Shown: in pieces, positions 10,853-12,312 of the stretch
How positions within the stretch are numbered: position 1 is the first letter of the stretch
Layout: each line of letters starts with the position of its first letter
NCBI RefSeq assembly: GCF_001612635.1
Contig: NZ_BDAV01000001.1
Coordinates: forward strand, 130,227-162,226
Direction: 5' to 3'
From: Nocardia africana NBRC 100379
GTDB lineage: Bacteria; Actinomycetota; Actinomycetes; Mycobacteriales; Mycobacteriaceae
Length of the DNA stretch: 32,000 nt
The notes under the pieces: generated by a model
What the model saw: the letters and a program-made list of their open reading frames with translations, nothing else
Databases searched by the model: none
What the model was told of the DNA's origin: nothing
Made by a program: the position numbers and the translations under genes

Positions 10853-11173
10853 ATGCACAAGATCTCGGTCGACACCGAGGGCGTCGCCGCCTACGGTGCC
10901 ACAGCTGCGGGACTGGCCGGTGAAATGGGTGTGGCCGCGGCGGGCGCCGCCGGAGCCGACCCGGTCCTGCTCGGCCCGATCTTCGGACTGGTGGGGGGCG
11001 ATTTCGTCGCTGCCTATGCCGCGGCCCACGCCGGGCACGTCGCGGGGATCGGCGAACTGTCCGCGGTGATGGGCAGCGTGGGGGCCGCCGCGACGGGCGC
11101 CGCCGCCACCTACTCCGAAACCGACGCCGCCCACGCCGCCGCACTGCGCGCCGCGGAAGGGCCGATCGGATGA
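10853..11173 (+). CDS. Small Ala/Gly-rich helix-turn-helix protein with C-terminal YxxxD motif (PE/EsxB-like candidate T7SS substrate partner)
   Basis: GGGGGA (10842-10847) lies 5 nt before ATG 10853; ATG 10847 is also possible. The 106-aa protein has two long predicted helices separated by DPVLLGPIFGLVGGD. It ends ...ATYSETDAAHAAAL, with Y-S-E-T-D at nt 11111-11125. Its stop overlaps the next start as ATGA (11170-11173). Confidence 0.6.
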   Translation: MHKISVDTEGVAAYGATAAGLAGEMGVAAAGAAGADPVLLGPIFGLVGGDFVAAYAAAHAGHVAGIGELSAVMGSVGAAATGAAATYSETDAAHAAALRAAEGPIG

Positions 11174-12312
11174 CGGGCGTCATCGATCTCGACGCACTCG
11201 CCCAACCACTCATCGATCTGCTCACCAGCTTCGGCTCCGGTGTGCTGCCCGCCGGCGGCCCGGCCGATGCGCTGCGCCAGGTGTCCATCCACCTCGACGG
11301 AATTCACCAGGCCGGCAGCGCGAGCATCAATCAGATGACCAACGCCTGGAACGGCGGTGGTGGCGACGCGGCGATGGACAAGGCGCTCAAGGTGCAGACC
11401 TCGGCGGCCGCGATGTCGGATCGCGGCAACGATATGGCCGATGTGGTCAGTCAGGCCGCCGCTTCGGTGCAGACGGGCCAGAAGGAACTCGACGGAATCG
11501 TCCAGTCGTTCGTGCAGTCGGTCACGGCGCTGGGGCCGGCGGTGACGACTCCCCCGGGACTGATCACGGTGGTCAACTCCGCGATCGACCATTTCGGCCA
11601 AGCGCTGGGCGTGGTCGGCCGGGTGCGGTCGGAACTCGACACGCACACCGCCTCGATGACCGAACTGACCCCGCCCCCGCCGACGCCGTCCATGTCGGGT
11701 ACCCCGGTGGCCGCGGCCTCGGTCGCCGCGCCCGCGCTGAGCACCGGCGCGCAGACGGCCGGTTCACTGCTCGGCGGGCTGGTGTCGAGCGGCGGTTCGA
11801 TGATGAGCAGTATGACCACCCCGGCCTCCGCGGCGACGCGGTCGCGGTCGAGTTCGGGCGCCACGAAAACCCCCGGAGCGCAGCAGTCCGGCGCCGACAA
11901 GCCGGGCCGCCACGGCGGCGTCATGATCACCCTGCCCGACGGCAGTCAGGTCGAGGCGCCCAATCAGAAGGCCGCCACCGCGGTCAAGGCGGCGATCAGC
12001 GCCTGCGGCACGCCGTACGTCTGGGGCGGCAACACCCCCGGGGCCGGCCTGGACTGCAGCGGCCTGACCAAGTGGGCCTACGGCGAGGCCGGCGTCGATC
12101 TGCCCCGGCTCGCCTGCGATCAGAGTGCCGGCGCCACACCGGTGAGTCCGGGCGAGGTCATGCCGGGCGATCTGGCCATCTGGGACGGGCACGTCGCGAT
12201 GGTCGTCGGTAACGGACAGATGGTCGAGGCCGGTGATCCGGTGCAGATCGACCCGATTCGAACGGAGAACATGGGAATGGCGTTCCACGGGTTCTACAGG
12301 CCGACGTCATGA
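11170..12312 (+). CDS. WxG-containing helical N-domain fused to a C-terminal NlpC/P60 (C40) peptidoglycan endopeptidase; no Sec/Tat signal peptide
   Basis: 380 aa. The N-terminus MTGVIDLDALAQPLIDLL has no hydrophobic signal sequence. W-N-G lies at aa 60-62 (tgg at 11347-11349) within about 165 aa of helical sequence. A Pro/Ser/Thr/Ala-rich linker spans about aa 166-255. The C-terminus has YVWGGNTPGAGLDCSGL (catalytic Cys) and GDLAIWDGHVAMVVGNGQMVEAG (His, then Glu 12 residues later, the spacing I recall from RipA-type enzymes). Confidence 0.85.
   Translation: MTGVIDLDALAQPLIDLLTSFGSGVLPAGGPADALRQVSIHLDGIHQAGSASINQMTNAWNGGGGDAAMDKALKVQTSAAAMSDRGNDMADVVSQAAASVQTGQKELDGIVQSFVQSVTALGPAVTTPPGLITVVNSAIDHFGQALGVVGRVRSELDTHTASMTELTPPPPTPSMSGTPVAAASVAAPALSTGAQTAGSLLGGLVSSGGSMMSSMTTPASAATRSRSSSGATKTPGAQQSGADKPGRHGGVMITLPDGSQVEAPNQKAATAVKAAISACGTPYVWGGNTPGAGLDCSGLTKWAYGEAGVDLPRLACDQSAGATPVSPGEVMPGDLAIWDGHVAMVVGNGQMVEAGDPVQIDPIRTENMGMAFHGFYRPTS

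Follow-up and report, generated by a model that had tools for sequence, protein, structure and literature searches.

Architecture and conservation of the peptidase

We analysed a 32,000-nucleotide stretch of the Nocardia africana NBRC 100379 genome (contig NZ_BDAV01000001.1, positions 130,227 to 162,226; hereafter the window, whose coordinates are used throughout), made up of high-GC (62–72%), actinobacterial DNA. At 11170–12312 the window contains a gene for a protein in which an N-terminal domain (N-domain) resembling substrates of type VII secretion systems (T7SSs) is joined by a linker to an NlpC/P60 peptidase domain. Our best explanation of the locus as a whole, which we consider probable, places this gene second in a conserved chromosomal operon whose product is a T7SS-style peptidoglycan endopeptidase. 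The features of the gene are the following.

11170–12312, forward strand: gene for the protein with T7SS-substrate-like N-domain, linker and NlpC/P60 peptidase, 380 amino acids, ATG start
11170–11667, forward strand: N-domain (amino acids 1–166), predicted four-helix PPE/EspA-like bundle with a WxG turn, from the AlphaFold2 model
11347–11355, forward strand: WNG turn (amino acids 60–62) between helix 2 and helix 3, from the sequence and the AlphaFold2 model
11668–11916, forward strand: disordered Pro/Ser/Thr/Ala-rich linker (amino acids 167–249), from AlphaFold2 and composition
11917–12309, forward strand: NlpC/P60 (C40) catalytic domain (amino acids 250–380), from Pfam and Foldseek
12055–12057, 12190–12192 and 12226–12228, forward strand: catalytic codons of Cys296, His341 and Glu353, from the sequence

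The original prediction, made from this DNA alone, had described a three-part endopeptidase with no classical export signal, and our analysis bears this description out. Upstream, an in-frame stop at 10921 closes the reading frame, and between it and 11170 there is no in-frame ATG, GTG or TTG, so an upstream start adding a signal peptide, which the original prediction had named as a possible objection, is impossible. By heuristics, residues 1–30 contain no Lys or Arg, and no RR motif, lipobox or hydrophobic stretch of transmembrane grade is present; the N-terminus is acidic, and the highest 19-residue Kyte-Doolittle window is 1.25. Homologs of the peptidase number more than 1000, and in the best 120 full-length orthologs (57–100% identical, nearly all from Nocardia) the net charge of residues 1–25 never rises above zero, with a Tat motif or lipobox in 0 of the 120. 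Together with the position of the N-terminus inside a confidently modelled helical bundle, these heuristics indicate that the peptidase has no Sec, Tat or lipoprotein signal.

The C-terminal part is, by sequence and structural model, an intact member of the NlpC/P60 family (MEROPS C40) and is predicted to cleave peptidoglycan. Pfam PF00877 matches residues 280–374 at 66.7 bits (cutoff 23, E = 2e-18), and residues 250–380 form a confident fold in the AlphaFold2 model, with predicted local distance difference test (pLDDT) values mostly of 80–93 (blocks 70–93). For this domain, Foldseek with the full-length model returned 8er5 first (E = 1e-9, TMt 0.80, root-mean-square deviation 2.0), followed by RipD, RipB, RipA and Cg1735. 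The DCSG motif occupies residues 295–298, with the Cys296 codon at the nucleotides originally given, and GHVAMV...E supplies His341 and Glu353, which are separated by the spacing of 12 that the original prediction had likened to RipA. NCBIfam equivalog scores lie far below their cutoffs for RipC (72.4 against 425), RipD (63.5 against 215), RipB (53.8 against 335) and RipA (38.7 against 625), and the peptidase is therefore not an ortholog of RipA–D.

The linker between the two folded parts is as rich in Pro, Ser, Thr and Ala as had been proposed: these residues make up 57% of segment 166–255, compared with 33% in each of the N-domain and the C-domain. Over most of residues 171–240 its pLDDT is 30–46, with a stretch below 50 at 175–240. 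In ortholog alignments it is the sole poorly conserved segment of the peptidase, differing in both length and sequence. The catalytic and WxG residues are, by comparison, well conserved. DCSG and GHV are present in 120 of the best 120 orthologs, and WxG falls at residues 46–75 in 118 of them; W60, C296, H341 and E353 are invariant both among 41 aligned Nocardia orthologs and in a 29-sequence alignment that includes Rhodococcus, Antrihabitans and Rhodococcoides, while G62 is at least 90% conserved among the aligned orthologs.

These observations bear on whether the enzyme leaves the cytoplasm. A C40 enzyme that is not exported and works in the cytoplasm or close to the membrane, such as an amidase or acyltransferase with a substrate other than peptidoglycan and an N-domain for oligomerisation only, would fit the lack of a classical signal and the non-significant Foldseek E-values of the N-domain, and the NlpC/P60 superfamily does include amidases and acyltransferases (PMC12067865). 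We regard this as highly improbable, given that the C40 domain keeps its triad and groups with the secreted endopeptidases 8er5, RipA, RipB, RipD, Cg1735 and p60, that the surrounding operon is of the kind seen with T7SS substrates, and that a long disordered Pro/Ser/Thr linker would be typical of exported wall-associated enzymes.

Structure and relationships of the N-domain

Foldseek on the full-length model gave C40 matches only, and the N-domain was therefore modelled separately with a deeper alignment. AlphaFold2 predicts four helices (residues 7–21, 31–59, 63–126 and 128–166) with a pLDDT of 88.9 and a predicted template modelling score of 0.77. The WNG motif, read at residues 60–62 as originally reported, sits between helix 31–59 and helix 63–126.

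Every Pfam match of the N-domain is T7SS-related, to WXG100, DUF4226, EspA_EspE and WXG100_2, yet all lie below curated cutoffs, and TIGR03930 likewise scored 16.4 against a cutoff of 44.85. No cell-wall-binding domain, the alternative that the original prediction had raised, was matched by Pfam in the N-domain. Pfam also gave no LXG domain in the peptidase and no PF00934 (PE) or PF00823 (PPE) match in the peptidase or in its upstream partner, and the PPE model was matched by just 1 of 115 N-domain relatives. When the N-domain family profile was compared with sequences of solved structures, the top four matches were EsxB/ESAT-6-like; EsxB was the best, with a weak E-value of 0.02, and its alignment spans exactly the WxG turn. 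In Foldseek, template modelling (TM) scores were 0.66 for PPE41 (2g38_B, from the PE25/PPE41 dimer), 0.60 for an unrelated SNX1-SNX5 helical chain and 0.58 for PPE15, and we use the PPE41 score as supporting evidence only.

A plain WXG100 hairpin of ~100 residues is ruled out by the 380-residue length of the protein, the ~165-residue N-domain and its four helices. The sub-threshold T7SS matches, the four-helix model, the EsxB profile match and the PPE41 TM-score therefore lead us to describe the predicted N-domain as PPE/EspA-like, a term that suits it better than WXG100 hairpin. Of the WXG-type targeting domain in the original prediction, the kinship to T7SS substrates and the WxG turn stand, and the ~100-residue hairpin gives way to a larger bundle.

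The N-domain family comprises 197 clusters at 50% identity, with named members in Nocardia, Rhodococcus, Antrihabitans, Rhodococcoides and Gordonia. A scan of 115 relatives showed NlpC/P60 in 22 and an SLT lytic transglycosylase in one, and most of the others have Pro-rich C-termini with no Pfam domain, so that the N-domain is, as judged from its predicted fusions to C40, SLT or other C-termini, modular. The SLT case, from Antrihabitans stalactiti (P0126/P0283), represents a second peptidoglycan-hydrolase payload on the same carrier. Many Nocardia paralogs (e.g. P0148, 557 amino acids) carry the N-domain behind a Pro-rich N-terminal extension, and many relatives (e.g. P0196) end in a repeated '...VVGxxxxxxxPVVGA...PDKxLTL' motif.

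Organisation of the operon

The peptidase gene is flanked on the same strand by tightly spaced genes and preceded by a promoter motif.

-35 box 10774–10780 and -10 box 10796–10802, forward strand: candidate promoter of an extracytoplasmic function (ECF) sigma factor of SigM type, GGAACCG-N15-CGTCGAA, from sequence and conservation
10809–10825, forward strand: conserved 5' leader block (GATGACGTAATCTGCC region; TGACGTA-TCTGCC), from a nine-locus Nocardia alignment
10847–11173, forward strand, with 10853 the likely ATG: small EspC/PE-like partner, 108 amino acids, or 106 from 10853
12309–12659, forward strand: divergent YbaB-like protein, 116 amino acids, whose start overlaps the peptidase stop (ATGA, 12309–12312)
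12676–13008, forward strand: YbaB/EbfC-family protein, EspL/EspD-like, 110 amino acids, Pfam YbaB_DNA_bd at 33.5 bits against a cutoff of 25.5
13042–14304, forward strand: satS homolog, 420 amino acids, NCBIfam SatS E = 9e-160 at 532 bits, below the 700-bit equivalog cutoff

The stop codon of the upstream partner overlaps the peptidase start (ATGA, 11170–11173). Nocardia orthologs of the partner align from the second ATG at 10853, and public gene calls likewise give 106 amino acids. The partner matches the Pfam model T7SS_ESX_EspC with 25.4 bits against a gathering cutoff of 23.5, and it contains YSETD, an instance of the YxxxD motif, at residues 89–93 of 108. At no fewer than 33 of the 54 related loci, a small open reading frame (ORF) upstream has YxxxD/E among its final 40 residues. 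The predicted secretion signal is completed by the YxxxD on this separate upstream partner, which the original prediction had not noted, and comparison of the partner sequences indicates that the Tyr of the YxxxD/E motif is not universally kept.

One 1438-nucleotide Logan contig encodes a 318-residue in-frame fusion of an EspC-like partner and the N-domain (P0125, domain at residues 110–274). The fusion is either natural, which would favour a pairing of partner and N-domain, or an artefact of assembly or frameshift at the ATGA overlap.

Downstream, the 116-residue protein has no Pfam match of its own, and BLASTP found no match between it and the 110-residue protein. Profile-profile comparison of its family with the neighbouring YbaB family nevertheless gave a probability of 84.6% (E = 7e-6), and PF02575 (YbaB_DNA_bd) was matched by 2 of 16 of its orthologs. 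Weak thermosome matches in a search of PDB sequences were dismissed. Mab_3666 of Mycobacterium abscessus, the counterpart of the 110-residue protein, is annotated 'YbaB/EbfC family EspL-like' (PMC13491425).

A conserved SigM-type promoter motif

The promoter motif lies 45–50 nucleotides upstream of the partner gene. Its -35 box is identical to the GGAACCG published for SigM of M. abscessus and Mycobacterium smegmatis (PMC13491425). Within the window alone the motif is non-significant (2 matches, 0.73 expected), and its significance comes from comparative data across loci. A scan of genomes returned 80 loci, and the counts of related loci given here use 53 or 54 family loci. GGAACC-N15-17-CGTC occurs in the equivalent upstream position at 43 of 53 of these loci, drawn from more than ten actinobacterial genera, compared with a background of 0.013 per 800 nucleotides. 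The loci that bear it belong to Nocardia, Rhodococcus, Rhodococcoides, Gordonia, Williamsia, Jongsikchunia, Dietzia, Mycobacterium, Lentzea and, in one case, Corynebacterium. In nine aligned Nocardia loci both boxes are invariant and the spacer drifts. In Mycobacterium and Gordonia the -10 box lies 7–9 nucleotides before the ATG, implying leaderless transcripts in these genera.

The leader block, located after the -10 box and before the Shine-Dalgarno sequence, is likewise invariant in the nine Nocardia loci, with variable flanks. An Rfam search of the promoter/leader region gave no meaningful match, and the block could be an operator or an RNA element.

A second GGAACC-N16-CGTC match in the window (23454–23429, reverse strand) is probably due to chance, as it lies inside a forward-strand ORF at 23117–24001; that ORF resembles an aromatic amino-acid hydroxylase by sequence. 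Further plus-strand GGAAC-N15-19-CGTC matches are seen downstream of the satS/add region, ~+3100 to +4300 nucleotides from the peptidase start, in several genera (loci L005, L006, L011, L013, L014, L016–L019, L023, L025 and L052). They might mark a further gene of the same regulon or be coincidences within coding sequence.

Distribution across the Mycobacteriales

Full-length relatives of the peptidase occupy the same chromosomal position across the Mycobacteriales, and about 50 of the best 120 orthologs have precomputed matches to both PF06013 (WXG100) and NlpC/P60. Orthologs in the genus Mycobacterium match over the full length at 38% identity and at the same locus. A search with a Mycobacterium ortholog showed the family to be common in Mycolicibacterium; no M. 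abscessus or M. smegmatis entry was present among the best 120 matches to that ortholog. For the Mycobacterium and Mycolicibacterium orthologs (L029, L044 and others), precomputed Pfam annotation lists NlpC/P60 only. The class may be missing from reviews of mycobacterial NlpC/P60 proteins because Mycobacterium N-domains escape WXG100 detection. Close C40 relatives (60–69% identity) with helical N-domains of their own occur in Pseudonocardiales and Corynebacterium; most Pseudonocardiales loci have an upstream partner with YxxxD/E, and none was detected upstream in the Corynebacterium loci.

The original prediction had called a WXG-type targeting domain on this class of enzyme unusual. That part was not borne out, in view of the more than 1000 homologs, the same operon in the SigM regulon of M. 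abscessus and the frequency of NlpC/P60 as a payload of predicted T7SS effectors. The impression of rarity is explained by a review from 2025 in which, among mycobacterial NlpC/P60 enzymes, the Rip proteins alone are treated; it reports signal peptides for RipA and RipB and does not mention WXG or ESX (PMC12067865), and the statement in the original prediction that characterised mycobacterial enzymes of this kind bear signals agrees with it.

The distribution also speaks to the possibility that the protein is an interbacterial T7SS toxin, EatA-like or polymorphic, that lyses the peptidoglycan of competitors, with a downstream gene providing immunity. A T7SS-delivered cell-wall toxin and T7SS-dependent competition have been shown between mycobacteria, and NlpC/P60 is among the commonest payloads of predicted Mycobacteriales T7SS effectors, which combine it with a helical N-terminal bundle and small upstream helpers (PMC13444075, 2026). 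The modularity of the N-domain, which is also found with SLT or other C-termini, fits a toxin as well, and the authors who described the M. abscessus operon also weigh damage to neighbouring cells (PMC13491425). Against this, the gene belongs to the core genome, in single copy and at a constant position (upp at 42 and satS at 43 of 54 loci) across two orders and several families, the full architecture is absent from the plasmids of PLSDB, and the C40 domain, 58–87% identical across genera, is not polymorphic. On reading their sequences, the two downstream YbaB-like proteins have no signal peptide, lipobox or transmembrane segment, and because of this they do not look like immunity proteins against an extracytoplasmic toxin. 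We therefore judge a toxin function to be unlikely.

Linkage to satS and chromosomal setting

The satS homolog begins 33 nucleotides past the second YbaB-like gene on the same strand and may be co-transcribed with the peptidase operon. The gap is 26–120 nucleotides in most Gordonia loci and in Williamsia, Jongsikchunia and Corynebacterium. On the other side of the operon, upp is divergent. The wider window holds housekeeping genes (pmm, upp, add, deoA and sdhAB). It also contains an ORF at 22303–22995 with a VapC-like PIN domain and an implausibly long N-terminal extension, an S11 D-Ala-D-Ala carboxypeptidase at 26342–27745 and a 336-residue ORF at 28914–29924 with a C-terminal DUF397 domain.

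The satS linkage raises the possibility that the peptidase is exported by SecA2 with SatS as its dedicated chaperone, the helical N-domain serving to bind the chaperone or to regulate. In Listeria the NlpC/P60 autolysin p60 leaves the cell via SecA2, and mycobacterial SecA2 handles some proteins that have no signal peptide, both of which count for such a route. So does the arrangement itself, with satS following the peptidase gene closely in several genera. A further point in favour is that in Mycobacterium tuberculosis the same slot is taken by sapM, which is co-transcribed with satS and encodes a client of SatS, a SecA2-pathway chaperone (PMC6333443). Against the route, SapM, the best-characterised client, carries a signal sequence in its preprotein form (PMC6333443). 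The Nocardia peptidase has no such signal, and the invariant WxG, the YxxxD partner with its EspC Pfam match and the SigM-type promoter point to a T7SS instead. In addition, satS of M. smegmatis (msmeg_1684) is preceded by a permease and other, unrelated metabolic genes and not by the peptidase operon, so that the linkage is not obligatory; the SigM-induced unit of M. abscessus is reported as four genes, Mab_3663–3666; and synteny with the nucleotide-salvage genes upp, add and deoA could be ancestral gene order. On balance, we consider the SecA2/SatS route quite unlikely.

Of the by-products of this analysis, the most interesting is that satS has stayed linked to the operon across the order, which offers a cheap hypothesis on the function of SatS in the many actinomycetes that have no SapM. 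SatS is known solely as a chaperone of the SecA2 pathway that serves SapM and a few further proteins. Operon and satS might together be a single ancient export module, older than the divergence of Mycobacteriales and Pseudonocardiales, with SatS ancestrally tied to the hydrolase, an idea that we put forward as rather doubtful. If it were true, SatS would originally have been, and in most genera would still be, the dedicated chaperone of a signal-less T7SS-type hydrolase, and sapM would have moved into the slot of the hydrolase in the M. tuberculosis lineage and taken over SatS. A 'SecA2' chaperone would then be linked to a PE/PPE-like substrate, and the hydrolase could be the wall-opening enzyme that ESX-4-type systems need.

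A proposed model for a type VII-secreted wall hydrolase

EspD and EspL stabilise ESX-1 substrates in the cytosol. With this precedent, we propose a model in which an ECF sigma factor of SigM type would drive transcription from the GGAACCG-N15-CGTCGAA promoter, and three tightly coupled cistrons, encoding the EspC/PE-like protein, the peptidase and the first YbaB-like protein, would be translated across the two ATGA overlaps, followed by the second YbaB-like gene and then satS. The partner would pair with the four-helix N-domain as PE does with PPE, and the resulting bundle would display a composite WxG + YxxxD signal for recognition by the EccC ATPase of an ESX system, most likely of ESX-4 type. 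The YbaB-like proteins would act as cytosolic stabilisers by analogy with EspD and EspL. After export, the flexible linker of ~80 residues would give the C40 domain access to peptidoglycan, where it would cleave stem peptides, presumably at the gamma-D-glutamyl-meso-diaminopimelate (gamma-D-Glu-mDAP) bond by analogy with RipA and RipB. The role would most likely be local remodelling of the producer's own wall in SigM-activated, ESX-4-linked responses, for example to cell-cell contact or envelope stress, with an attack on neighbouring cells as a secondary possibility. Our analysis shows the architecture with its catalytic residues, the lack of a Sec, Tat or lipoprotein signal, the partner and its motifs, the operon structure, the conservation of the promoter motif and the synteny. 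In the model, the heterodimer, the dependence on SigM, export by ESX-4, the substrate bond and the physiological role are all points that we infer.

Several observations weigh against this model. The N-domain scores fall short of the family cutoffs (23.8 bits against 27.3 for WXG100, PF06013; 17.7 against 27 for EspA_EspE), and its Foldseek E-values are non-significant, the best being 0.09, with BAR-type and eisosome helical proteins scoring similarly; we treated these latter matches as generic long-helix likeness. The relatives in Corynebacterium have no WxG. In a Nocardia subclade (L001, L003–L007, L022 and L024), LxxxD (e.g. VLTETD) replaces YxxxD in the partner, and the eight Nocardia loci outside the YxxxD/E count represent a true Tyr-to-Leu change with the partner present. 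The -10 box is assigned from conservation, and the promoter could instead serve another ECF sigma factor whose -35 box is of GGAAC type. The 32-kb window contains neither an ESX gene nor sigM, and the conserved downstream neighbour of the operon, on the same strand at 43 of 54 related loci, encodes a chaperone of the SecA2 pathway. Finally, orthology to Mab_3664 is something we infer from the architecture and from the Mycobacterium-genus orthologs at 38% identity.

If the proposed mechanism is true, the protein would be a type VII substrate that is core throughout the order and has a clear enzymatic activity, that of an endopeptidase of peptidoglycan whose path to the wall needs neither Sec nor Tat. 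It would be a tractable system in which to learn how secretion machines of ESX-4 type, the ancestral T7SS, cross or reshape the wall, and could also show how contact and envelope responses under SigM control work outside Mycobacterium. The class is absent from current reviews of mycobacterial NlpC/P60 proteins, which treat the Sec-dependent Rip proteins only.

Comparison with known systems

EssH of Staphylococcus aureus is a peptidoglycan hydrolase of cysteine-peptidase type that is needed for T7SSb secretion, and it shares with the Nocardia peptidase the tie to a type VII system, suggesting wall opening for secretion. EssH differs in its CHAP domains and its signal peptide of classical type, and it is not known to be a WXG-type substrate. 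With RipA, RipB, RipC and RipD (and RipE/Rv0024), the Nocardia peptidase shares the C40 fold, DCSG, the Cys-His-Glu triad and the His-Glu spacing of 12 (PMC12067865). Unlike RipA and RipB it has no signal peptide, it scores far below the Rip equivalog cutoffs, and in place of a coiled-coil or FtsX-binding N-domain it has one of T7SS type.

The sapM-satS pair of M. tuberculosis (PMC6333443) likewise places the gene of an exported protein directly before satS, in a slot between upp and add; there, SapM is a phosphatase with a Sec signal that is exported via SecA2, whereas the Nocardia genes upstream of satS form a T7SS-type module. Effectors of EatA type (PMC13444075) share the helical N-terminal bundle, the small upstream helper gene or genes and an envelope-degrading payload. 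They differ in that the Nocardia locus is core and syntenic, has no immunity candidate with an export signal and carries a payload that is not polymorphic.

Closer likenesses are found among ESX substrates. The espACD genes and EspE/EspF/EspH/EspL of ESX-1 share a partner of the EspC model, weak EspA_EspE matches and accessory proteins of YbaB fold; in Nocardia, however, the EspC-like gene comes first, the EspA_EspE matches are sub-threshold, the C40 payload is one that EspA does not have, and the system is probably ESX-4 and not ESX-1. PE25/PPE41 (2g38), and PE/PPE pairs with C-terminal enzymes, also combine a two-helix YxxxD/E partner of ~100 residues with a WxG helical domain of 165–180 residues and a variable C-terminal payload, and PPE41 gave the best TM-score of the N-domain. 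The Nocardia pair differs from them in having no PE/PPE motifs or Pfam matches and no espG nearby, and in its non-significant Foldseek E-values.

The closest counterpart is operon 12 from the SigM regulon of M. abscessus (PMC13491425, 2026). It consists of Mab_3663, an ESX/PE-like protein with YxxxD/E and no WXG; Mab_3664, an NlpC/P60 protein with WXG; Mab_3665, which is Rv3716c-like; and the YbaB/EspL-like Mab_3666. The four genes are directly induced by SigM together with the ESX-4 substrates EsxU/EsxT, and an AlphaFold model of the Mab_3663/3664 pair has been presented (PMC13491425). The Nocardia locus shares the order of four genes, WXG on the peptidase, YxxxD/E on the upstream protein, YbaB-like genes downstream and the GGAACCG -35 box. 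It differs in genus, and the SigM dependence and ESX-4 link would be carried over to Nocardia from this operon, where the secretion and activity of the peptidase are likewise putative. Since the architecture has already been annotated by NCBI and discussed in the 2026 papers, our finding is a confirmation and a comparative extension. The Nocardia protein belongs, by its sequence features, to a recognised class of T7SS-type NlpC/P60 hydrolases with predicted hydrolase activity, and what is added here is the PPE-like N-domain with a split secretion signal, the order-wide conservation of a SigM-type promoter and the conserved downstream satS.

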